DNA of 64,000 nucleotides, taken from the NCBI GenBank assembly GCA_947625725.1, contig CANQPI010000008.1, forward strand, positions 3,159 to 67,158, in the 5' to 3' direction. How positions within the stretch are numbered: the stretch's first letter is position 1; the number at the start of each line of letters is the position of its first letter. Both the position numbers and the translations under genes were made by a program. This document shows, piece by piece, positions 43,844 through 63,884 of the stretch. Below the pieces are notes generated by a model. It was not told the DNA's origin. It was given only the letters and a program-made list of their open reading frames with translations, and did no database searches. Source of the stretch: an uncultured Clostridia bacterium (GTDB lineage Bacteria; Bacillota; Clostridia; Christensenellales; CAG-314).

Positions 43844-46648
43844 TTACAAAAGGAAACAACAAACACTCCACGCAAGCGTCAGCAACAAGTCGTCCGTTGC
43901 GGTTTCCAAAACGTAAGCCTTTTCGTCGGTTTCCTTTTTGACGCGTTTTACTATGAACGTGACCAACACCTCTATCAGCGCGGCGATCAATCCTATAATA
44001 ATTATAAGTCGCAATATCATGTCACCATTTTGAATCCGACGAATGCTTGATCCTCCAAGAAACATCGCTACGATACCAATCGATACAAGCGACACGGAAG
44101 TTACCATTTTTGCTTTGCGCTTGCGATTGTTCTCATACTTCCTCATGAGCGAATTAGACAGACTAACCACAGCATATATTACTACTCCCCAAACCGTCAT
44201 TTTACAAAGATAACTTGAAATGAGTAGTATCTGGAAAACATCGTTTCTCGTTCTCCACCAAATGGTTCCCAAGACGTAGTATACTCCCCATAACAACCCA
44301 GCCGACAATATGGACAAAAATACCGATTCGCCCGCGATGTGACGTTTCAGCGATTTTTTGTCCGAAGGATCTTGCGCGACTTTGAGCGCTTTTGTGTTTC
44401 GATTCAACGCAATGCTTGTAAGAACGATAAACACCACCGCAAAAACACAATCGAAGGCAAGAGAAATATAAGAAATTGTCCCATTTCCTGTCATACACGC
44501 AAATCCCATTGAAACGAATATACTTGCAAACAGCAGGTTGCAGTATTTGCTCGCTATGTTGATACCGTTACCGTTGTTGCCGCTTATACCCACCTCGGCA
44601 AATGCGACCAAACACGCAATGATTATCTGAACGCCCCAAAAATTAAAATATCCTATCGTAACTTCTATAAAAACAATCGTCGCACAAGCCAAATACGCGA
44701 TAAAACTCCCGGACATCTGCAAATTGTACTTGGAAACGGCGGGATACTGTTCGTTAAGCAGGTTTCTGCGATAAATTTTGCCGGAAATAACGCGATTTAC
44801 AATAGACAGTGCCAAAAGAGGCAACATAATTACCGACATTATCAAATAGTTAATGACCCAATTGACGTTAGTATATGTCGGCGAGATGTCCCCAATAATA
44901 CAAACAAGCATTGGATACATTGCTGCAACGACCAACAAGACGTATTTCTTCGACGGCAATTTGCTTGCATAACCGAGTGCAACAACGGCCATACCGCACA
45001 ATACAAGCGCGGTAGGCAAAATTGCCAAAGTTAATGTCAAACGCTCCGTCCTTTGTATATCGGCGAAATAGTCTTCAACTTGTTGCTGAAAACTTGATTT
45101 GTAAACATCTAATTCGAATTGAATAGACGACGTGTCTGTTTCCGCCGAATACTTGATGTGCCAACCCACATTGTCGTAACCGTCAATGCTCAGACTGCTC
45201 GACAATTCGTAACCCGTAATGTAACGTAATTGATAGTTGCCGTTTTTGAAAAGGACTCTGACGCCCAACGGCGTATTTTCCGTCAAGTTTTCCACAAATT
45301 GGGGTATGGGTTCGACTTTTTTTACCTCGAACTTGTTTTCAGACCCTTCGCTTTCGGTTTGCAAACTGTGCAAACTCATTGCTACCGAACTGACGCCGCC
45401 GGAACTGTCAAACGTTACTACTATTTGTTTGTAGTCCATGCTCAGCAACTCTTGGTGCAGTTGTTCGATTTGTTCTCGCAATTCCGTGGGACTTGTCGCA
45501 TGTTGCGTTAAACTTTGAATTTTGTCGTAAATTCGCTCGGCATTGTTACTGTAATAATGGTAAGTTGAGTCGCTCGACGTATATTCGTTGGGTTCGCCGA
45601 GAATTTTTTTGACTTTCTCGCGAGAGTCGCCGAACTCGATTTGTGACACTTTGCCCACGCGGAAGTTGTTGCACAACGTTATCGGCAAAACTATTGAAAG
45701 CACTATTGCGACAAGAAGTACGCACACAATAACTACCGACCACATTTTGTGAGCGACAACCCACATCTTGCTCTTTGCGACAAATTCCGACGTGCGGGAT
45801 TGTCGATTATTGGGCTTGGGTTCTTTTTGCTCTTCGGGATCGTTTCTGCCGCAATACCAAGAGGCAAATACGGCGCAAGCCTGCAAAAAGGCAAATACCG
45901 CCGTCAAAGAAATTACCACGGCGGGCAAATTGCCGTACAATTCTTCAAACCCCTCTGTAAATTCTTTACATTGTTTCGACAGCACGCTTGCGCACACAAT
46001 TATTGCAATGTGCAATACAAAACTTACGGATGCAGCCAAGTTGCGACCAAATCGATTGCTTTTCCAATAGACAAGAGTCAGTATCAAAAAGTACGCGTCG
46101 GAAATGGCGGCAAATGAAATTAGCGCACGAGCAGAATCAAACATATCCGACATCATGCTTTCTTTGAGCATATCGTACAAATTGACGTTTCGCTCCACGA
46201 AAAATCCGTCGCTTTTTACGATAATGGCGGCATAAAACGCCCACAACAACGCCGCCCACAGTCCAAACAATACCAACGGCAAATATTTGAGTATCTTGCG
46301 ACCGTCAATCGCTATCACCGTTATGGGGCGAGTTGCAAGTTCCTTTTGCGCAATGCGCTCTTCTACCGACGAATGGATCGTTTGTCGTTCGATTTCGTCC
46401 GCACATTTGTCGTTTTGCGATTGCGGCGATTGCTCCGAGTCCGCGGCATGCGCTATTTGATCGATGTCGGTATAGGAAACCGACTCCGTTGCTTTTTCAA
46501 ATTCGCTCCCACATTCGGTACAAAACTTTGCCGCCGCCTTTTGTTGCGCGCCGCAAATCGAGCAAATTTTTGTCGCTTCGTACTTTGTGCCGCACTCGGG
46601 ACAAAATTTTCCTTCGAACTCCGTACCGCACTTACTGCATTTGTTCAT
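43844..46648 (-). CDS. double zinc-ribbon, polytopic membrane protein (unknown function)
   Basis: 934 aa. The N-terminus has CSKCG...CPECG and CSICG...CTECG. About 4 TM helices follow, then a soluble domain of about 230 aa (IEFGDSREKVKKILGEPNEY is BLIP/SmpA-like), then more than 10 further TM helices. GC is lower than in neighbouring genes. Confidence 0.75.
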   Translation of the reverse strand: MNKCSKCGTEFEGKFCPECGTKYEATKICSICGAQQKAAAKFCTECGSEFEKATESVSYTDIDQIAHAADSEQSPQSQNDKCADEIERQTIHSSVEERIAQKELATRPITVIAIDGRKILKYLPLVLFGLWAALLWAFYAAIIVKSDGFFVERNVNLYDMLKESMMSDMFDSARALISFAAISDAYFLILTLVYWKSNRFGRNLAASVSFVLHIAIIVCASVLSKQCKEFTEGFEELYGNLPAVVISLTAVFAFLQACAVFASWYCGRNDPEEQKEPKPNNRQSRTSEFVAKSKMWVVAHKMWSVVIVCVLLVAIVLSIVLPITLCNNFRVGKVSQIEFGDSREKVKKILGEPNEYTSSDSTYHYYSNNAERIYDKIQSLTQHATSPTELREQIEQLHQELLSMDYKQIVVTFDSSGGVSSVAMSLHSLQTESEGSENKFEVKKVEPIPQFVENLTENTPLGVRVLFKNGNYQLRYITGYELSSSLSIDGYDNVGWHIKYSAETDTSSIQFELDVYKSSFQQQVEDYFADIQRTERLTLTLAILPTALVLCGMAVVALGYASKLPSKKYVLLVVAAMYPMLVCIIGDISPTYTNVNWVINYLIMSVIMLPLLALSIVNRVISGKIYRRNLLNEQYPAVSKYNLQMSGSFIAYLACATIVFIEVTIGYFNFWGVQIIIACLVAFAEVGISGNNGNGINIASKYCNLLFASIFVSMGFACMTGNGTISYISLAFDCVFAVVFIVLTSIALNRNTKALKVAQDPSDKKSLKRHIAGESVFLSILSAGLLWGVYYVLGTIWWRTRNDVFQILLISSYLCKMTVWGVVIYAVVSLSNSLMRKYENNRKRKAKMVTSVSLVSIGIVAMFLGGSSIRRIQNGDMILRLIIIIGLIAALIEVLVTFIVKRVKKETDEKAYVLETATDDLLLTLAWSVCCFLL

Positions 46649-55432: not shown

Positions 55433-56179
55433 CTACTCCTGTTCGTTTTCGTAATTGAAATCTTCCTTGCGAGAAGCGACCGTCAAAGCCTCTACCCGAG
55501 CCGCTCCCGCGCGTTTGAGTACTTTGGCGCACTCGTTGATGGTCGCGCCGGTAGTTTTGACGTCGTCGATAAGCAAAATATGTTTTCCCTTGACGTTTAC
55601 GTCGGGTTTGATCCGATAACTCCCCACAAGATTGGTTTTGCGATCCGAGCGGGAAAGTTTTTCCTGCGCGGGGGTTTCGCGGATCTTGACAACGGTTTCC
55701 GTCAAAAGTTTTTGCACACCAAGTATATCACAAAATTCCGCCGCGAGCAACTGCGCTTGATTGTAGTGACGAACCTTGCGGGACTTGGCGCTCATAGGCG
55801 CAAATGTAACGAGGTCGTATTGCAAATTTTGTTTGACGGACAAAAACGCCAAATACGGCGCAAATCCGTGCGCGATACTTCCCAAATTTGCAAACTTCAT
55901 TTGCAAAATGGCTTTGCGCACGTTGCCGTCGTAGTTGAAAACGGAGTACGCCCTGTCGAAATAAGTTTTGTCGAAGGCGCAATTTCCGCAGTAATCTTCC
56001 TCGCCGTCGATAGCGACGCCGCAACGTTTGCAAGTTTTGCCGTTGTTGAAGGAAACGTCTTTCATGCACTCGGCGCAAAAAGCCGTCCGTTCAAAAAGTT
56101 CTGCGCCGCAACTAAGACATTTGAAGTCGGACGGAGCGAAAACCTGCCTCAACTTGTGCATAAATTCCGTTCTAGTCAT
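55433..56179 (-). CDS. comFC: ComF family protein (phosphoribosyltransferase domain, ComFC-like)
   Basis: Zinc-finger cysteines CLSCG...CAEC...CKRCG...CGNC and the PRTase motif ILLIDDVKTTGAT. Start taken at the ATG at 56179, overlapping the recD2 end. Confidence 0.8.
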   Translation of the reverse strand: MTRTEFMHKLRQVFAPSDFKCLSCGAELFERTAFCAECMKDVSFNNGKTCKRCGVAIDGEEDYCGNCAFDKTYFDRAYSVFNYDGNVRKAILQMKFANLGSIAHGFAPYLAFLSVKQNLQYDLVTFAPMSAKSRKVRHYNQAQLLAAEFCDILGVQKLLTETVVKIRETPAQEKLSRSDRKTNLVGSYRIKPDVNVKGKHILLIDDVKTTGATINECAKVLKRAGAARVEALTVASRKEDFNYENEQE

Positions 56180-58454
56180 CGCTGTCGTCGGGAGTTGTAT
56201 TGTTGACGGTCGCGCCGAAAAACCGTTGATGAACGGCGTTTTCTTCTTGCAAAAACCTGCACAAATTGGTCGTCCGCGCCGCAATGTAGTTGTTGTGTAC
56301 CATCAAAGCGAGTATCTTTTTGTTGCCCACAAGCACCACCGCGCGCTTGGCTCTGGTAATTGCCGTGTACAACAAATTTTTGTTGATGATAGTGGGCGGA
56401 CCGTTTAGCAACGGCATTACCACCACTTCGAACTCGCTGCCTTGACTTTTGTGAATGGTAATGGCGTACGCCAACTGCAAATCGGTCAACTCCTGCTCGG
56501 TGTAGGTGGCAAGGCGGTTGTCGTCGAAAAGTACTTCGATTATCCCGTTGGCGCGATCGATACGCCGAACAATGCCTATATCGCCGTTGAACACTCCCAC
56601 TCCGTCGCTCAAATTGCCTTGCGCGTCAAAGCGCACAAAGGGCAACTCGTAGTTATTGACGGTTTGCATTACCCGATCTCCCTCGCGCAGAGTCATTTTA
56701 CCCACGTAAAGTTCCGACTTGCCGAACTCGCGGGGATTGAGCGCCTGTTGAAGTTTGATATTAAGATTTTCAACGCCCGCCACGCCGTTTTTCAATGCTC
56801 CCAATACCTGAATCTCCGACGGCGGCAACTGCGTAAATTTGGGCAAACGCGTAGTTACAAGTTCCACCACGGTATCCGCAACCTGCTGAAAATCCGTGCA
56901 ACTCATAACAAAAAAGTCGCGACTGCGGTTGTTGATCTCGGGCATTTTGCCCTTGTTGATGAGGTGGGCGTTGCTGACGATAAGGCTATCCTCCGACTGG
57001 CGGTAGATATGCGTGAGATAGCGAATTTCTATCACGCCGCTACGAATGATGTCCGCGAGAACGTTGCCCGCGCCCACGCTGGGAAGTTGATCCTTGTCGC
57101 CGACAAGCACCAAACGAGTGCCGTTTTCCAACGCGGCGAGCAAACTGTACATAACGGATACGTCCACCATGCTAAGTTCGTCAACAATGACCGCGTCGCA
57201 CGGCAACGTGTTCATTCGGTTATATTTGAAAGCGGGCTTGTCGCCGTGCATTTCGAATCCCAACAGACGGTGGATGGTTTTGGCGTCGCGCCCCGTAGAT
57301 TGCGAAAGGCGCTTTGCCGCCCTGCCCGTAGGCGCGCAGAACTCCACGCGCAGACCGTGAGCGGTCAAAATTTCCGCAATGCACTTGATAATGGTAGTTT
57401 TGCCCGTACCCGGTCCTCCCGTAATGACCGTAACGCCGTTTACTATCGCCGAGCGCACCGCGCCGAGTTGACCGGCGTGAAAATCGATTTTGTGAACGCG
57501 CTCGAATTGCTCTATCATCGAATCCGCGTCCATCATAACGCGTTTTGCGTCGTGGTTCAGCGTGACTAAACGTCCCGCTATGGATTTTTCCAATTTGTAA
57601 TACCGCACAAGGGATATGCACCGCTGTCCCTCGACGTCGAAAGTTTTGACGGCGGGCTCCAATACCAATTTGGTGACGGTGTCCTCCACGAGTTGACCGT
57701 GCAATTCCAGATCCACACCCAACAGTTCCGAACACGCCTTCATCAAATCGTCGAACACAAGGTAAGTGTTGCCTTGTTTTTCGGCGGATTCTTTCAGTTC
57801 GTAAACGATCGCCGCGCGAACGCGAAACTCGCTTATTTGTTCGACGCCCATACTTTGAGCGATCTTGTCCGCAGTCAAAAAGCCCACCCCGTCCACGTCG
57901 TCTATCAAACGGTAGGGATTTGCCAACACCAACGACTTGGTTTGCTCCTTGTAGATATTGTAAATTTTGACAGCAAGATTGACGGTCATACCGTAACTTT
58001 GCAAAAACATGATCTGTTCCTGCATCGCTTTGAGGGACGCGACGGCATTGGCTATATCCATCGCTTTTTTTTGCGAAATGCCCTTGACGTTGGCAAGTTG
58101 CATGGGGTTGTTTTCTATCACGCCGAATGTGTCGTCGCCGAACATTTTGTAGATGTTGTTTGCGGTAACTTCGCCCACGCCCTTTATCAATCCGCTACTT
58201 AAATACTTGATTATCCCCTGCCGCGAGGTGGGGTCGCACACAGTGTAACTTTCTATCGCAAGTTGCTCTCCGTAGGTTTTGTGTACCGACGTTTTGCCCT
58301 TGACGTTGAGTACGGCACCCACCGCAAGCGTGGGAAAATTGCCGACGCAGGTGACGTCGTCACCGTCGGTAGTTTCCAAACTCAATACGGTATAGCCGTT
58401 ATCCTCGTTTCGGTAAATGATAGCCGAAACGGTACCCTTGACGGAAAGTTCCAC
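56172..58454 (-). CDS. recD2: SF1B ATP-dependent RecD-like DNA helicase
   Basis: 760 aa. N-terminal OB/HhH region, Walker A GGPGTGKTT, Walker B VIVDELSMVD, and C-terminal YAITIHKSQGSEF. GTG start after TAGGAG. Confidence 0.9.
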   Translation of the reverse strand: MELSVKGTVSAIIYRNEDNGYTVLSLETTDGDDVTCVGNFPTLAVGAVLNVKGKTSVHKTYGEQLAIESYTVCDPTSRQGIIKYLSSGLIKGVGEVTANNIYKMFGDDTFGVIENNPMQLANVKGISQKKAMDIANAVASLKAMQEQIMFLQSYGMTVNLAVKIYNIYKEQTKSLVLANPYRLIDDVDGVGFLTADKIAQSMGVEQISEFRVRAAIVYELKESAEKQGNTYLVFDDLMKACSELLGVDLELHGQLVEDTVTKLVLEPAVKTFDVEGQRCISLVRYYKLEKSIAGRLVTLNHDAKRVMMDADSMIEQFERVHKIDFHAGQLGAVRSAIVNGVTVITGGPGTGKTTIIKCIAEILTAHGLRVEFCAPTGRAAKRLSQSTGRDAKTIHRLLGFEMHGDKPAFKYNRMNTLPCDAVIVDELSMVDVSVMYSLLAALENGTRLVLVGDKDQLPSVGAGNVLADIIRSGVIEIRYLTHIYRQSEDSLIVSNAHLINKGKMPEINNRSRDFFVMSCTDFQQVADTVVELVTTRLPKFTQLPPSEIQVLGALKNGVAGVENLNIKLQQALNPREFGKSELYVGKMTLREGDRVMQTVNNYELPFVRFDAQGNLSDGVGVFNGDIGIVRRIDRANGIIEVLFDDNRLATYTEQELTDLQLAYAITIHKSQGSEFEVVVMPLLNGPPTIINKNLLYTAITRAKRAVVLVGNKKILALMVHNNYIAARTTNLCRFLQEENAVHQRFFGATVNNTTPDDSDD

Positions 58455-59680: not shown

Positions 59681-59836
59681 AAAAAAGCGTCCTGCCAAGT
59701 GACAAGACGCGCAAAACAGCCCTTTCGCGGTCCCATCTTTCGACTTGCGTCGCGGAATTTAGCACCTAACTGCAAAAATTTTTAGGTTGCTGTGACTTCG
59801 TCGAGTCCGTCTCTCCGTCACTCTCGATAGGTTAGT
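59681..59836 (-). promoter_or_regulatory. SAM-I (S-box) riboswitch with terminator
   Basis: Minus strand CUAUCGAGAGUGACGGAGAGACGGACUCGACGAAGUCACAGCAACC...GGUGCUAAAUUCCGCGAC...GAAAGAUGGGA matches the S-box consensus. The terminator is GCGUCUUGUC-ACU-UGGCAGGACGC plus U6. Confidence 0.85.
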
Positions 59837-59898: not shown

Positions 59899-59929
59899 CA
59901 AAAAATGCCGCCCTCAATTATGAGAGCGG
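59899..59929 (-). terminator. Rho-independent terminator of the WYL/nuclease-like/glycosylase operon
   Basis: Minus strand CCGCUCUCA-UAAU-UGAGGGCGG (9 bp, one G.U) followed by CAUUUUUU. Confidence 0.6.
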
Positions 59930-60000
59930 ACATTTGTATGCGAAACACTATTTGTTTCCAACTACCGAACCGATTTTACGAATGTGTGCGATACGTAATC

Positions 60001-60798
60001 TCAAATACGCGAGGGGCAGTTGTTCACAAGGCATTGACCGCACTTGGCGTTTGCTCCGCAAATGTTAATCGGGCCTTCGGCGCAGAAATTCCACAAAATC
60101 GCGTCCAACTCGGCGTCGCCGATGTTCAACGTCACCGCGATTTGGTGCGCGATACGAATTACATCGACTTTTTCCGCGTCATTAAACCCACCGTTCAATT
60201 TTGTCGCTGTAACTTTGCCTAATTTGACTATTCCCAAGCGATAAAACAAGCGGCAAATATGTACGTCCGGTTTGACGACGTTTACGCCGACATTTTTCAA
60301 ATATTCGCAGGCAATGGCAATACCGACAGAGTTGAGTTTGTGACCGCCTATCGCCAACTCCTTTACCAAACCCTCTACGTTGTTCGGTAAAAATTGGTTG
60401 TAGTAATCGTCTATGCTGCCGTGTTCTTTTTCAATTTGTTCCAATGTTTCCACGTTTGCCGCAAGTCCGTTCATTTGCGCGTTTGTACTTTGACCGGCGC
60501 ATTTGATTTTTTTCATTTGATCGACAAAGTATTGAGCCGACGTGTTCTTGATTTTTTGCGGATCGTAGTGAAAGAAAATTTCGTCTATTTGGGGCAGCGC
60601 GGGTGCAATTTTCGTGTTCCAAGCGACGCGTGCGCTGATTATCGCATAGACCAACGCGCGGATATGCTCTTGCAGACTAAACTTGCCGCCGCCGACGCGT
60701 TTCAAAATGTTCGGTTCTACGTTCCGACGGTAGTCGTCCAGATAATTGACGCCCGTAGCGTTCATTGTCGTGATGATGTTTTGAATTTGTTGATACAT
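60001..60798 (-). CDS. HhH-GPD superfamily DNA glycosylase with Fe-S cluster loop (EndoIII/MutY-like, no catalytic Lys)
   Basis: 265 aa. LNSVGIAIACEYLKNVGVNVVKPDVHICRLFYRLG aligns with the E. coli Nth segment [35 protein letters not shown]. The Asp is kept and the Lys is replaced. The C-terminus is C-X5-C-X2-C-X4-C (ICGANAKCGQCLVNNC). SD AAAGGAG. Confidence 0.78.
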   Translation of the reverse strand: MYQQIQNIITTMNATGVNYLDDYRRNVEPNILKRVGGGKFSLQEHIRALVYAIISARVAWNTKIAPALPQIDEIFFHYDPQKIKNTSAQYFVDQMKKIKCAGQSTNAQMNGLAANVETLEQIEKEHGSIDDYYNQFLPNNVEGLVKELAIGGHKLNSVGIAIACEYLKNVGVNVVKPDVHICRLFYRLGIVKLGKVTATKLNGGFNDAEKVDVIRIAHQIAVTLNIGDAELDAILWNFCAEGPINICGANAKCGQCLVNNCPSRI

Positions 60799-60819
60799 GT
60801 TTTTTCTCCTTTTGTTTTT

Positions 60820-62292
60820 TTATTTCTCCGAGATTTCTCGGTAGATTTCTCTGAGTTTTTGCAAAACGTCGTCCATCGTTATGCCCGTAGAATCGCCGAA
60901 CAAAGCGCAGACAAATGACGCCCACGAAAAATCGTCGCGCATTGCGGGCAGTACAATATCGCCTTTTTCAAGATACCTTTTGATGTCTATCGCATGTTCG
61001 CAGATACAACACGTTTCCAAACAGTCGTCGTACACATCCGAAATATCACGCATTGCTTCAAACATTTCGTGCCCATCGTACACCACCACGTCGTAATCGT
61101 CTTCGCCGCAATTCTGCTTTTCCCAAATTGTCGTTATCATTTTATTGGCGACATCTCGCGGCGTATCGGTATCGGACGAACAACAACGCTCTACGGGGAA
61201 GTCGGGGCTGTCGGGCATGTAACGCGCGTACTCAAAGAACGTCGGCTCAGACAACTCTCCACAGTACGTATCCGCGCAAACAACGCCCTTTTGCGTTTGC
61301 AACGTAAGCACGTACGTGGGGGCGTAAAATTTGAACAGCGACTTTACCGAGTCGGCATTTATCAAAATATCTCTGTTTTCGCGTTGGGCTTTGATTTGCA
61401 TCAGATTGCACTTGCTCAACTTTGCGTCGCTCATCAAAACTTGATCGTACGTCGTTACACCCTCATTGTACAAACGCCACTTGTCGTGAAAATTGTACAG
61501 ATTCAAAACGGAATCGGCGGGAAGTCTTGCGCTGCAAGTTTTCCAACGAGGACAATGCTCGCAATGTTTGCCATAGTTAGGCAACGGCTCAAAAGCGTCT
61601 TCCAACACTTCGCACGCAGCAGCGATCTTGGGGGCAAAATAATTTTCCAACTCGTCTTGGTCAAAGGATTTGTCCAACAAATTATCCGTCCATTGCACGC
61701 GGTTGCCAACGACCCGCTTTTCGTCGTTTCCCATGCGGGAGCAACATATTTTTGCCTCTTTGACATCAACGCCGTTTAGCCGCAACAAATACACTTGCGC
61801 TTTGAGGTTGTCCATGTTTTCGGCAATGGCTTGCTCTTGCTGCAATGGGCTGACAAGATACACGCACACTGAGTTATCCGACCTTACAAGCAACGCGTCC
61901 ACCACACAGTAGAGGTGTTTTTCGTAACTTCCCCAAACACTATTGAGCATATATTTCAACGACGGCAATTTGCGATTTAAAAAATTGTTAAAGTACGTTT
62001 TCGTTTCCAATACGGCGTCTTCCACATTTAGCAACCGCACGCCCAAAGCGTTGTATTCCAAATGCGCTTGAAAAATTTTTCCGGACGAACCTATCACAAA
62101 CTTTTTGAATTCTGCCGTTTCATCTCTCATGCGCGCAATTTCTTTGTAGATGGCGTCATTGTCCGCTTTTGCCGGGATGTCTACTACCGGAATATTCTTG
62201 TAATCCAAAAATGCTTTTAATTGACAAGCGTCGAAATCTTTAAGCGTTTCGGCGTTGAGCATTATGTGTTTTTTGGATATTCTTTCGTTCAT
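60820..62292 (-). CDS. DUF2779-like protein: Cas4/RecB-type PD-(D/E)xK fold with a 4-Cys cluster plus a C-terminal RNase-H-like domain
   Basis: 490 aa. An N-terminal Cys (DACQLKAFL) plus CEHCPRWKTC gives a C...CxxCx5C pattern. A QxxxY motif is present (KAQVYLL). The C-terminal blocks YAPTYVLTLQTQ, DTPRDVANKMI and VVVYDGHEMFEAM parallel DUF2779 blocks (LDFET, DPR, YnxxFE) as I recall them. Confidence 0.65.
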   Translation of the reverse strand: MNERISKKHIMLNAETLKDFDACQLKAFLDYKNIPVVDIPAKADNDAIYKEIARMRDETAEFKKFVIGSSGKIFQAHLEYNALGVRLLNVEDAVLETKTYFNNFLNRKLPSLKYMLNSVWGSYEKHLYCVVDALLVRSDNSVCVYLVSPLQQEQAIAENMDNLKAQVYLLRLNGVDVKEAKICCSRMGNDEKRVVGNRVQWTDNLLDKSFDQDELENYFAPKIAAACEVLEDAFEPLPNYGKHCEHCPRWKTCSARLPADSVLNLYNFHDKWRLYNEGVTTYDQVLMSDAKLSKCNLMQIKAQRENRDILINADSVKSLFKFYAPTYVLTLQTQKGVVCADTYCGELSEPTFFEYARYMPDSPDFPVERCCSSDTDTPRDVANKMITTIWEKQNCGEDDYDVVVYDGHEMFEAMRDISDVYDDCLETCCICEHAIDIKRYLEKGDIVLPAMRDDFSWASFVCALFGDSTGITMDDVLQKLREIYREISEK

Positions 62293-62337
62293 TGTTTTTC
62301 TCCTTTTTCTTCGTTTTTGCTTATATGGGGTTAAAAA

Positions 62338-63372
62338 TTATTTGTAGCAGTCCATTATCTTTTGCAACCAATCGAGATATTTCTGCCGTGTGGATTTGTC
62401 CAAAATTTTGATATGATTGCCGTACCCTGCGCACCACCCCCAAAAGACGTCGCTGAGATACACTTCTGCGGTGTATGTGTATTCGCCCGTTGCGGCGTTG
62501 AGCACGCAGTTGATCTCGCCGAATTTTTCCACCACCTCGGGGTGATAGACTTGGGGCAAACTGAAACGTATTTTATCCAATGCGCCGTTGCCGCCCCACA
62601 TGGAAAATCTCATCAACTGCTTCACTTCTTCTGCGCTCGGCGGCGCGACACTGATTGGGACACGTTTTTTTTCTATAACTATATCCGTCATTTTGTCCAC
62701 GCGTACCGAATAAATTTGTCCAACGGAATTGCGCAAGCACAAATAGTAGTACCCGTTGTTGAATATAAGTTCCAAGGGATTTCGGTTTTTGCAAGGGCGC
62801 GCAACGTAAACGCCGTCACTGTACGTAAAGTAGCCGTATGAAATTTGCCTGCGTTCCGCCAAGGCACGATCCAAAACCTCGACATTGTCCAGCGCGCCGT
62901 TGCCCGTAGACTTGTTGTAACTCAACCCCGGAACTTCTTTGCTCCAAAAATCGTGCAATTTCTCGTCGTAGACCGAAACTATCGCGTTTACCGTTCGCGA
63001 CGTCTGTTCCTTGGTGAAACAGGGTGCCGCCTTGACTGCGTCTATCAAAAATCGCGTCTGAGCACGCGTAAGAGGACGTTCGTCAATGTAATATGCGCTC
63101 ATTTTGCCCAAACGGCATTTGTTCATTACGCGTCGCTCTCCGTCGGCACCGTTGAGTACAAACGCCAGCGCATCTGCCGCGGCATAAACCGCACGACGTT
63201 GACAGTTGAGTGCCGCAATGAGTTCTTGGGTAGTAACAGGATGTTCGACGTCGGAATGTACTTTGAGGTAGCGATACAGCAACAGTACTCGCGAGCGTTC
63301 GAGATAATTTGCTTTTTCTGCGGGATCTAACTCTATACCACTGTTTGTTGATTGTGTATCCGCTTTTGTCAT
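62338..63372 (-). CDS. WYL-domain transcriptional regulator (wHTH + WYL + C-terminal WCX-like domain)
   Basis: 344 aa from the internal ATG at 63372 (MTKADTQ). wHTH RVLLLYRYLKVHSDVEHPVTTQELIAALNCQRRAVY. Linker LTRAQTRFLIDAVKAAPCFT. WYL core ISYGYFTYSDG...NPLELIFNNGYYYLCLRN...IYSVRVDKMTDI. Confidence 0.8.
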   Translation of the reverse strand: MTKADTQSTNSGIELDPAEKANYLERSRVLLLYRYLKVHSDVEHPVTTQELIAALNCQRRAVYAAADALAFVLNGADGERRVMNKCRLGKMSAYYIDERPLTRAQTRFLIDAVKAAPCFTKEQTSRTVNAIVSVYDEKLHDFWSKEVPGLSYNKSTGNGALDNVEVLDRALAERRQISYGYFTYSDGVYVARPCKNRNPLELIFNNGYYYLCLRNSVGQIYSVRVDKMTDIVIEKKRVPISVAPPSAEEVKQLMRFSMWGGNGALDKIRFSLPQVYHPEVVEKFGEINCVLNAATGEYTYTAEVYLSDVFWGWCAGYGNHIKILDKSTRQKYLDWLQKIMDCYK

Positions 63373-63393
63373 CTCACTTTTCCTCTCGATTAT

Positions 63394-63422
63394 ATGATAT
63401 ATCAATTGCTTAACAAAGTCAA
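63394..63422 (-). promoter_or_regulatory. sigma-A type promoter of the WYL operon
   Basis: Minus strand TTGACT, 17-nt spacer, TATCAT. The 10-bp palindrome TGATATATCA (63395-63404) overlaps the -10. Confidence 0.5.
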
Positions 63423-63581
63423 TACAAATTTGAAAAATTATTTTTGCTAAATGTGCGTTGCGGTACTTTATTAGGTACAGCAAACGCCGTTTTGCGACAG
63501 ACAAGTGTTTTTCAAAAGAATTGCACTATCGCGCGCGGGCAAACAAATTGCGTTACTGCAAACAAAACAGGGCAAAAGTTG

Positions 63582-63646: not shown

Positions 63647-63723
63647 GGCGGCGTAGCTTAGTTGGTTATAGCGGCCGGTTCATACCCGGCAGGTCGTTGG
63701 TTCGAATCCGACCGCCGCTACCA
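63647..63723 (+). tRNA. tRNA-Met (anticodon CAU; elongator-like, tRNA-Ile2 not excluded)
   Basis: Cloverleaf GGCGGCG...GCCGG-UUCAUAC-CCGGC...GGUUCGAAUCC...CGCCGCUACCA. It lacks the three G-C pairs of initiator anticodon stems. CCA is encoded. Confidence 0.88.
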
Positions 63724-63730
63724 CAAATAT

Positions 63731-63806
63731 GGCTCCTTGGTCAAGCGGTCTAAGACATCGCCCTTTCACGGCGGTAACACGAGTTCGATTCTCGTAGGAG
63801 TCACCA
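63731..63806 (+). tRNA. tRNA-Glu (anticodon UUC)
   Basis: GGCUCCU...CGCC-CUUUCAC-GGCG...GAGUUCGAUUCUC...AGGAGUCACCA. Confidence 0.9.
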
Positions 63807-63808
63807 AT

Positions 63809-63884
63809 GGGGAGTTAGCTCAGTTGGGAGAGCATCTGCCTTACAAGCAGGGGGTCACAGGTTCGAGCCCTGTACTCCCCACCA
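63809..63884 (+). tRNA. tRNA-Val (anticodon UAC)
   Basis: GGGGAGU UAGCUCAGUUGGGAGAGC...CUGC-CUUACAA-GCAG...GGUUCGAGCCCUGU ACUCCCCACCA. Confidence 0.9.

Follow-up and report, generated by a model that had tools for sequence, protein, structure and literature searches.

Near one end of a 64,000-nucleotide stretch of DNA (hereafter, the window) from an uncultured Clostridia bacterium of the CAG-314 lineage (GenBank assembly GCA_947625725.1, contig CANQPI010000008.1, positions 3,159 to 67,158), positions 59899-63422 hold three consecutive minus-strand genes, denoted here A, B and C, which code for a WYL-type regulator, a divergent relative of the Cas4-like DUF2779 proteins and a putative DNA glycosylase of the HhH-GPD superfamily, respectively. 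The reading that we favour, albeit tentatively, is that the trio constitutes a horizontally acquired module in which a WYL regulator controls a glycosylase resembling the defence enzymes described under the name Dag, together with a partner that has no catalytic function. According to this reading, C would represent an unannotated, Dag-like family that resides mainly on mobile genetic elements and in defence islands. The case for a defence role is made by the accessory nature of the C family, by its association with mobile elements and defence genes, and by published precedent. The components of the unit are the following:

62338..63372, minus strand: gene A, WYL regulator of probable helix-turn-helix (HTH)-WYL-WCX architecture, 344 aa from the ATG
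60820..62292, minus strand: gene B, divergent Cas4-like Fe-S plus DUF2779 domains, 490 aa
60001..60798, minus strand: gene C, predicted HhH-GPD-superfamily DNA glycosylase with a C-terminal four-cysteine loop, 265 aa
63394..63422, minus strand: sigma-70-type promoter-like sequence TTGACT-17-TATCAT, 10/12 consensus match
59899..59929, minus strand: intrinsic-terminator-like hairpin CCGCTCTCATAATTGAGGGCGG plus T-run, 9-bp stem with 6 GC pairs

The assignment of C came from its predicted structure and from conservation across its family. The protein gave no match to the Pfam HhH-GPD model and marginal ones only to Pfam Adenine_glyco, PADLOC OGG and the NCBIfam N-glycosylase/DNA lyase model, and its homologues, which form 31 clusters with 30-41% identity, include none with a Pfam domain. 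The AlphaFold2 (AF2) model of C (predicted local distance difference test score, pLDDT, 93.4; predicted template modelling score, pTM, 0.92) was matched best in Foldseek by MjOgg (3knt, TM-scores 0.58/0.71), and further by TmOgg, EndoIII, MIG, MutY and MagIII, with a probability of 1.0 throughout. The C-family profile matched archaeal Ogg2 structures (E 1.5e-4) over the segment EYLKNVG..KPDVH..R, which comprises the helix-hairpin-helix (HhH) and the catalytic Asp; it also matched Tag weakly over the N-terminal half and the cluster loop of MIG (1kea) at the C terminus. In the alignment with MjOgg, the family motif EYLKNVG..KPD(V/R)H.xR corresponds to FLRNVGYDDVAIIDRHILR. Residues H45, W60, Q108 and D130, as well as the EYLKNVG and KPD(V/R)HxxR motifs, are invariant or nearly so in the family, with H180 and R183 invariant, D178 nearly invariant and N169 invariant or nearly so, and the loop C247-x5-C253-x2-C256-x4-C261 is also nearly invariant. 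The residue aligned with K129 of MjOgg is a conserved Ala; because Ala occupies the position of the Ogg2 lysine, C is predicted to be monofunctional, with the other conserved lysines of the protein (K154, K168 and K176) as possible alternatives to the missing catalytic one. The fold match, the conserved Asp, the change of K129 to Ala and the four-cysteine loop all agree with the initial annotation, in which C had been called a lysine-less HhH-GPD protein of the Fe-S type. C is thus modelled as a lysine-less HhH-GPD glycosylase fold carrying an Fe-S-type four-cysteine loop and belonging to a family without a Pfam model.

The best structural matches of C were Ogg2 enzymes (MjOgg 3knt/3fhf, TmOgg 3n0u, SsOgg 3fhg), and the motif FLRNVG..(I/P)D(R/V)H(I)xR, with its catalytic Asp, is common to C and to Ogg2, EndoIII, MIG and MutY. 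Similarly, the Cys-x5-Cys-x2-Cys-x4-Cys loop of C resembles the Cx6Cx2Cx5C arrangement of EndoIII and MIG. However, C shares only 13-18% identity with these enzymes, lacks the catalytic lysine and has an accessory rather than a core distribution; Ogg2 enzymes, in addition, have no Fe-S cluster, and the N-terminal half of C is more like Tag.

The ratio of non-synonymous to synonymous substitution rates (dN/dS) of C against its counterpart in the variant locus L011 was 0.21. Between these two proteins, 13 of the 14 amino-acid differences lie within residues 179-215 (window 60154-60264), a segment that overlaps a lineage-specific insertion of about 12 residues after the catalytic helix (around 194-205), and the dS of C (0.145) exceeds that of A and B by a factor of 2.5-5. 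This cluster of differences could stem from a recombination tract or mark a hypervariable surface loop. One family member, P0005 (413 aa, from ENA), carries an extra C-terminal extension of about 150 aa. A single-sequence search of the PDB with C returned ribonuclease inhibitor and other leucine-rich repeat (LRR) proteins, and an equivalent search with B also returned an LRR protein; both results were judged to reflect chance or sequence periodicity.

The distribution of the C family is what brings the enzyme close to mobile elements and defence. A scan recovered 37 loci in GTDB genomes, 58 metagenome loci and three IMG/VR contigs, that is, about 100 loci scattered patchily over at least nine bacterial phyla and some archaea, which collapse to 27 groups at 70% identity. 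The GTDB loci are mostly from Clostridia, with others in Chloroflexi, Planctomycetota, Latescibacterota, Terriglobia, Bacteroidota, Lentisphaerae and one proteobacterium, while the archaeal lineages are Methanobacteriaceae and Methanofastidiosum. Precomputed Pfam annotations placed one homologue beside a Type I restriction-modification (R-M) system and an SLFN-like helicase, another beside a Type I R-M system, YgjP, a GIY-YIG protein, Mrr and GmrSD, and a third beside Hachiman, a reverse transcriptase (RT), resolvases and HEPN. When 209 flanking proteins from 26-27 dereplicated groups were scanned in bulk with Pfam, the commonest families were resolvases (8), large serine recombinases (5) and tyrosine integrases (4), with ResIII/T1R/Methylase_S, RAMPs and AAA_15/21 also common. 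A PADLOC scan of the flanks, from which seven large non-defence proteins had been left out, identified within 4.3 kb of C models for MTase_I, REase_I, Cas7_IIId, Cas1, HamB, AbiEi/AbiEii, DRT-like RTs and a Type II MTase. Overall, roughly one in two dereplicated groups has a recombinase gene or an established defence gene no more than a few kb away. Searches of viral and plasmid collections added little: tblastn with C gave no match in 50,697 phage genomes and, in plasmids, one weak match from Cupriavidus in an uninformative context, and the matches to viral structures in BFVD were weak.

The most constant feature of these surroundings is a dedicated regulator beside C. In 21 loci this is a divergent XRE gene, and in two, L055 and L038, it is a same-strand WYL-WCX regulator upstream of C; phmmer with A had missed the latter neighbours, which were recovered by the bulk Pfam scan. 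The commonest downstream partner is an unannotated conserved protein of 415-563 aa (344-563 aa with that of L007 included), present in 24 loci (10 + 14; alignment A3), as in L016:10751-12355, L021:10765-12456, L024:2309-3625, L045:10812-12059 and L007:8856-9890, from Clostridial genomes and gut metagenomes. It had no match in Pfam, PADLOC or the PDB, save for an N-terminal zinc ribbon in L021. The pair formed by C and the A3 partner is preceded by a divergent XRE repressor and followed by resolvase and large serine recombinase genes. It resembles a cargo module of two genes carried by a serine-recombinase element, and the actual conserved system of this C subfamily may be this pair.

B was a more difficult case. 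No family in Pfam or NCBIfam, PF11074 and Cas_Cas4 included, was matched at E <= 0.1, and phmmer, run exhaustively against 1.84 billion representatives, returned a 98% variant and then only 26 proteins (E 4e-8 to 6e-4, 22-30% identity). All ten of the relatives that were scanned carry PF11074 (DUF2779) at 1e-39 to 1e-47, usually with Cas_Cas4. DUF2779 proteins have been described as an uncharacterised fusion of a Cas4-like PD-(D/E)xK domain with an RNase H-like 3'-5' exonuclease (PMC3985635, PMC13621843). Against a family hidden Markov model (HMM) built from 18 canonical members, with B left out, B scored 99 bits over profile positions 92-433, and the residues flanking its motifs (PxYxLxxxT around Exo I, xYxVx around motif III) fit the HMM well, although its identity to full-length canonical members in a MAFFT alignment is 16-21%. 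The AF2 model (pLDDT 71.5) pointed in the same direction, its first half matching Cas4, the nuclease domains of AdnAB, ACE1 and Exo5 and its second half matching 3'hExo. These results bear out the earlier description of B as a DUF2779/Cas4-like protein with a C...CxxCx5C cluster, and its sequence indicates a very divergent homologue of the same two-domain architecture and length (about 490 aa) as DUF2779/PF11074 (RNHL family F.17; MMSYN1_0389). The state of the individual motifs in canonical proteins and in B and its 98% variant is given below:

Cas4 motif II Asp: canonical D; D132 kept in B and its variant
QxxxY: canonical Q and Y; both kept
three C-terminal cysteines: canonical C, C, C; C244, C247 and C253 kept
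first cysteine: canonical C; C23 of B, aligned in the MAFFT alignment only
Cas4 E-x-K: E and K in 17/20 relatives; L-V-S in B and its variant
Exo I D-x-E: D and E in 22/22 relatives; T-L-Q
S-x-H: canonical S and H; A-R-Y
Exo III block HNGxEA...YCxLDTxAM, about 60 positions: present in canonical members; absent, since the protein ends early

Both nuclease sites are missing together in just two of the 28 sequences compared, namely B and its 98% variant. Loss of the Cas4 site alone recurs in the family: P0044 and P0057, otherwise canonical DUF2779 proteins, lack the Cas4 E-x-K (K-V-S and F-D-T, respectively) and keep all the exonuclease motifs. Nevertheless, B is not a pseudogene. Its dN/dS was 0.32-0.41, estimated from 9-10 synonymous and 13-15 non-synonymous differences, the highest value of the three genes and well below 1, as corresponds to purifying selection; the 490-codon open reading frame (ORF) is uninterrupted in each of the five variant contigs, and every one of them retains the cluster cysteines, D132 and the Q/Y motif. 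Considering that the fold and the Fe-S cysteines are kept under purifying selection while the catalytic residues are gone, B most likely plays a non-catalytic role.

For A, PADLOC model WYL PDLC01652 matched residues 159-339 (E 6.7e-16), and Pfam WYL scored 19.2 bits, under its cutoff of 21.8. By BLASTP, A could be aligned end-to-end with two regulators in which Pfam recognises WYL plus WCX, that of L055 (residues 29-344 of A, E 2e-5) and that of L120 (E 8e-10), and in these alignments the N-terminal segment of A corresponds to their HTH-like region; no HTH or WCX model matched A directly. Furthermore, the profile of the A subfamily matched the structures of DriD (8tp8, 7tzv) and PafBC (6sj9, 7p5x), with E values from 7e-11 to 2e-8. 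The initial assignment of A to the WYL regulators was thereby confirmed, and its sequence suggests a full-length HTH-WYL-WCX regulator nearer to the single-stranded DNA (ssDNA)-activated DriD/PafBC group. A has the length (about 340 aa) and would have the winged HTH-WYL-WCX order of DriD, PafBC, BrxR and CapW and, like them, heads its presumed target unit beside nucleic-acid-acting cargo, but its identity to any characterised member is at most about 20%. A word-indexed search returned only a 98% variant and, apart from such same-species variants, neither A nor B has relatives above about 25% identity. The dN/dS of A against the variant locus was 0.13.

The region upstream of A was inspected for an operator. 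No 20-27-bp inverted repeat of the BrxR/CapW type was found there. A shorter palindrome was considered:

63395-63404: palindrome TGATATATCA, 10 bp, overlapping the -10 of the gene A promoter

This candidate was rejected, since its single occurrence in the window is at chance level (0.73 matches expected) and it is not conserved in the 95-98% identical variant locus L011, which reads TAATATATAT at this stretch, the most diverged part of the upstream region. Comparison of window 63373-63425 with L011:250-302 showed about 10 substitutions within some 40 nt around the -10 and the Shine-Dalgarno (SD) sequence of A, and the 87 nt farther upstream are identical. As to the promoter itself, an overlapping TATAAT lies 5 nt downstream of TATCAT, and the near-consensus -35 and -10 elements (10/12) suggest repression rather than dependence on an activator. 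In this respect A would differ from the activators DriD and PafBC, its closest relatives, as its promoter looks constitutive and hence repressible.

That the three genes form one unit was supported by their arrangement. The ATGs of B and C are both preceded, 5-6 nt upstream, by the SD sequence AAGGAGAAAAA, and that of A by GAGAGGAAAAG; the longest mechanical ORF of A reaches a TTG at 63504. The intergenic gaps measure 45 nt (A-B) and 21 nt (B-C), and the same 344-, 490- and 265-aa gene calls were seen again, at 95-100% identity, in independent metagenome contigs, in keeping with the gene structure given in the initial annotation. The unit had also been credited with its own promoter and terminator. 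Sequences of both kinds do occur at the positions listed above, as consensus matches only, in a region where the scan found 11 promoter-like sites versus 5.7 expected. The low GC content invoked in support of horizontal acquisition could likewise be upheld in part: positions 59899-63422 contain 46.2% GC, compared with a window mean of 50.5% (sd 2.2 in 3.5-kb windows), a value as low as this is found in 7.3% of equal-length windows, and GC at third codon positions (GC3) is 0.56-0.57 in the trio versus 0.65-0.67 in metK and recD2. The dip is genuine, though modest, amounting to about 4 points and not to the approximately 17 (40 versus 57) estimated before.

All these observations could be integrated, within the reading favoured here, in the following scheme. 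C would be the enzymatic effector, a monofunctional DNA glycosylase of the [4Fe-4S] type that most likely excises a non-canonical base, either modified or damaged, with abasic sites remaining in the DNA. A would control the operon from its own promoter and would probably respond to ssDNA in the manner of characterised WYL regulators, so that expression would rise when DNA is degraded or damaged, for instance during infection; WYL regulators are known to co-localise with defence systems and to sense ssDNA (PMC9122601, PMC11662680). B would most likely be non-catalytic, either binding DNA ends, ssDNA or abasic sites, or acting as a partner or modulator of C, and would probably not cleave AP (abasic) sites.

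Precedent for such an effector exists. Dag1-17 are HhH glycosylases that act alone against phages containing 7-deazaguanine (Getz et al., bioRxiv 10.1101/2025.10.29.685425); they are polyphyletic within the HhH superfamily and are found in AT-richer mobile DNA (bioRxiv 10.1101/2025.10.29.685425). C was likened to them by description and not by sequence, and no C-family motif, taxon or accession appears among the Dag supplement entries listed. The resemblance comprises an HhH-superfamily fold that escapes sequence annotation, a small size (about 250 aa), a patchy distribution across phyla and a location in AT-richer DNA near recombinases or defence genes (for C, at the level of the family); moreover, in fold space some Dags fall, like C, close to Tag, aGOG and MjOgg. 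There are also differences. Dag1 is reported to be bifunctional, with a catalytic Lys-Asp pair, whereas C has the Asp and an Ala at the Ogg2 lysine position; C has an EndoIII/MutY-type four-cysteine loop, while the terms "iron-sulfur" and "Fe-S" are absent from the main text of the Dag paper; and the Dags were found as single integron cassettes in Vibrionaceae, in contrast to C, whose gene is one of three in an operon, the others coding for a WYL regulator and a dead nuclease. A second precedent concerns Brig1 and Brig3, which are of the uracil-DNA glycosylase (UDG) type, the latter working with the accessory protein BapA (PMC11078745, PMC13160076). As in the trio, a defence glycosylase shares its operon with an accessory protein that is not the killing enzyme, although Brig3 is a UDG-superfamily and not an HhH enzyme, BapA works as an active deglucosylating hydrolase and no WYL regulator is present. 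The existence of stand-alone HhH defence glycosylases (bioRxiv 10.1101/2025.10.29.685425) and of Brig3-BapA (PMC13160076) means that the earlier presentation of the trio as a system of an undescribed sort cannot be maintained as it stood.

WYL regulators, HhH defence glycosylases and DUF2779 proteins are thus known kinds. What is new is the unannotated family of lysine-less HhH-GPD proteins of the Fe-S type in a defence and mobile-element context, the WYL control of a C-type glycosylase, and the doubly inactivated yet maintained Cas4/DEDD protein B. Should the proposed reading be correct, this family would join the glycosylase immune effectors as a source of candidate modified-base-specific enzymes, and the placement of a C-type effector under a WYL regulator (an XRE regulator in most relatives) would fit the danger of its constitutive expression. 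B, for its part, would be a natural Cas4/DEDD double nuclease made non-catalytic and kept by selection, offering a handle on what the DUF2779 scaffold binds. The scope of these implications is limited by the confinement of the trio to one rarely sampled lineage and by the prior publication of the concept of an HhH defence glycosylase.

Whether the three genes travel together elsewhere was the co-occurrence check put forward in the initial annotation, and its outcome was negative. A B-like or DUF2779 gene was found within 7-10 kb of C in none of about 45 independent loci from the first scan and in none of the 58 metagenome loci (486 kb), giving 0 of about 100 C-family loci in total, and a C-like gene was found in 0/6 DUF2779 loci. 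The three-gene combination is, consequently, lineage-specific and not a conserved system. The possibility that the A3 partner is a hidden relative of B was discarded (hhalign probability 0.5%), and the 344-aa neighbour in L007 and the middle genes of L055 (178 aa) and L038 (351 aa) showed no relationship to A, B or A3.

One link does exist, and it runs through the regulator. In L055:7702-10690 (IMG/VR 3300045988_179409) a WYL regulator and a C homologue lie on the same strand, separated by genes for 82 and 178 aa, on a contig that also encodes a phage capsid, a D5/NrS-1-type primase-polymerase and an NADAR-DnaB fusion; L038:236-3351, from a Lentisphaerae metagenome-assembled genome, has the same order with a 351-aa ORF in the middle. 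The WYL regulator of L055 is 35% identical (E 2e-71) to that of L120:2612-7209 and L121 (IMG/VR 3300045988_179175 and 3300029623_000339), where the regulator gene precedes, at a distance of 1.8 kb and in the same orientation, the genes for an RtcB-type RNA ligase and a canonical DUF2779 protein. The RtcB proteins are 50-55% identical to annotated phage tRNA-splicing ligases, and the RtcB and DUF2779 ORFs overlap by 26 nt, which suggests that DUF2779 belongs there to a phage nucleic-acid-repair or counter-defence cluster. Beyond its own species, A has no closer detectable relatives than the regulators of L055 and L120/L121. Since the cargo of this WYL subfamily is a C-type glycosylase on one viral contig and RtcB plus canonical DUF2779 on two others, the trio looks like a merger of two cargo types under one WYL subfamily on phage-like elements.

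A number of observations weigh against a WYL-controlled, Dag-like defence module. At the locus itself, no direct repeats or att-like insertion scars were found around the trio, and no integrase, phage or defence gene adjoins it in the window; its surroundings, made up of metK, recD2, a ComF-like gene, secA and a tRNA operon, are not those of a defence island. PADLOC-DB v2, whose use had been recommended in the initial annotation, gave no system-level match for the trio proteins but only single-model matches, to a generic WYL (strong), Cas4 (E 0.018) and OGG (E 0.0045). B-C pairing is known from one lineage, so that the functional coupling of the two proteins is argued from operon structure alone. 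Regarding A, the solved structures closest to it are those of DriD and PafBC, both activators of the response to DNA damage, and BrxR and CapW did not reach E 0.1 with the profile of its subfamily. As for C, its fold is closest to those of repair enzymes (Ogg2, EndoIII, Tag), and several of its homologues (L008, L018, L037, L040 and L041) lie among housekeeping genes.

Several of these facts would be expected if the trio were a DNA-damage-inducible repair module working in the manner of DriD, PafBC or SiwR, in which A would sense the ssDNA arising from damage, C, as a specialised base-excision enzyme, would remove alkylated or oxidised bases from the genome of the host and B would be a lesion- or end-binding accessory. 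This alternative, already contemplated in the initial annotation as a DriD-like damage regulon, is a live rival, and we consider it possible, if rather unlikely. It draws on the match of the A-subfamily profile to the damage activators (E 1e-10 to 1e-8 in round figures) and not to BrxR or CapW, on the best fold and profile matches of C being to repair glycosylases (Ogg2, EndoIII, MIG, MutY, MagIII and Tag) and on the housekeeping surroundings of the trio, with recD2 two genes off. The contexts of some C homologues are also of this sort, among them one near an imuA-imuB-dnaE2 cassette on a plasmid, and canonical DUF2779 is a probable housekeeping exonuclease that is quasi-essential in syn3.0 (PMC13621843). 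Nevertheless, the C family is rare and patchy across phyla, unlike core repair enzymes, and about half of its dereplicated groups are near recombinases or known defence genes; the GC3 of the trio is atypical, its near-consensus promoter (10/12) suggests repression and not activator dependence, and a catalytically dead B would bring no repair chemistry.

Another explanation, which we regard as unlikely, is that the trio is a domesticated accessory remnant of a phage or satellite, made of cargo genes that are co-transcribed but functionally uncoupled, with B as a relic drifting after its inactivation. The presence of the WYL subfamily of A on IMG/VR contigs, either by a C homologue (L055) or by RtcB and canonical DUF2779 (L120/L121), would fit such an origin, as would the absence of B-C co-occurrence anywhere else, the want of relatives of A and B closer than about 25% identity besides same-species variants, and the state of B, without key catalytic residues and with the top dN/dS of the trio. 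Drift of B is difficult to reconcile with a 490-codon ORF, cluster cysteines, D132 and Q/Y motif kept in all variants and with a dN/dS well below 1. The tight 45- and 21-nt spacing, the strong SD of each gene and the single promoter and terminator speak likewise against uncoupled cargo, and no integrase, att repeats or other phage genes lie adjacent to the trio.

A more elaborate form of glycosylase immunity was also considered, in which B, a nuclease-dead Fe-S Cas4/DEDD protein, acts as a sensor or adaptor; we deem it improbable. Here the targets of recognition by B would be DNA ends, ssDNA or the abasic sites that C produces, and B would shield those sites from repair, rendering them lethal to the invader. 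Alternatively, B would generate or present the ssDNA ligand read by A, thus closing a feed-forward loop. Nuclease-like domains of RecC and of the RexB/AddB type retain a PD-(D/E)xK or Fe-S fold without catalysis and bind or channel ssDNA; they sit in helicase-nuclease machines, whereas B is a free-standing two-domain protein. If true, this would be the first functional assignment of a DUF2779-derived protein, and a case of a pseudo-nuclease recruited to defence.

Finally, the two-enzyme mechanism proposed in the initial annotation, in which base removal by C is followed by cleavage or resection at the AP site by B, working as an active Cas4/AddB-type nuclease, was appealing in view of the Cas4/AddB-type fold and Fe-S cysteines of B, of the want of a lyase lysine in C, which would make a separate AP-processing activity sensible, and of the adjacency of both genes, 21 nt apart, but it is very improbable, because B has L-V-S for E-x-K, T-x-Q for D-x-E and A-x-Y for S-x-H and misses Exo III, so that the loss of catalytic residues in both nuclease domains makes canonical AP-site processing unlikely, while the exonuclease D/E are kept in 22/22 relatives, the Cas4 E/K in 17/20 and the D/E/K triad is stated to be conserved throughout the DUF2779 family (PMC13621843), and because no C homologue elsewhere has a B-family nuclease-fold partner.

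The operon is placed, as had been noted initially, between the metK S-box unit and a tRNA operon, and its terminator sits just upstream of the metK S-box promoter. The elements on either side are:

59730-59833: S-adenosylmethionine (SAM) riboswitch, upstream of metK and downstream of the trio
63647-63884: tRNA-Met/Glu/Val operon, opposite strand, upstream of the trio, with its own promoter

Downstream of the trio, metK is followed by a gene for a RecD2-type helicase and by the ComF-like gene (double zinc ribbon plus phosphoribosyltransferase), as seen in window 56172-58454 and the sequence downstream of it (L051). The closest chromosomal neighbours of the trio are DNA-processing housekeeping genes. 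Elsewhere in the window, the stretch of lowest GC (42-45%) is that of 43844-46648, on the minus strand, which codes for a multi-pass membrane protein of 934 aa, with a double zinc ribbon at its N terminus, and has no evident tie to the trio. A longer metagenome contig (L009:544-2634) extends past the end of the window and shows three small genes (151-209 aa) after the tRNA operon, unannotated save for one weak DUF6883 match. MetK and RecD2 each form a singleton cluster at 90% identity, and the contigs with an identical MetK all carry C upstream wherever they extend that far.

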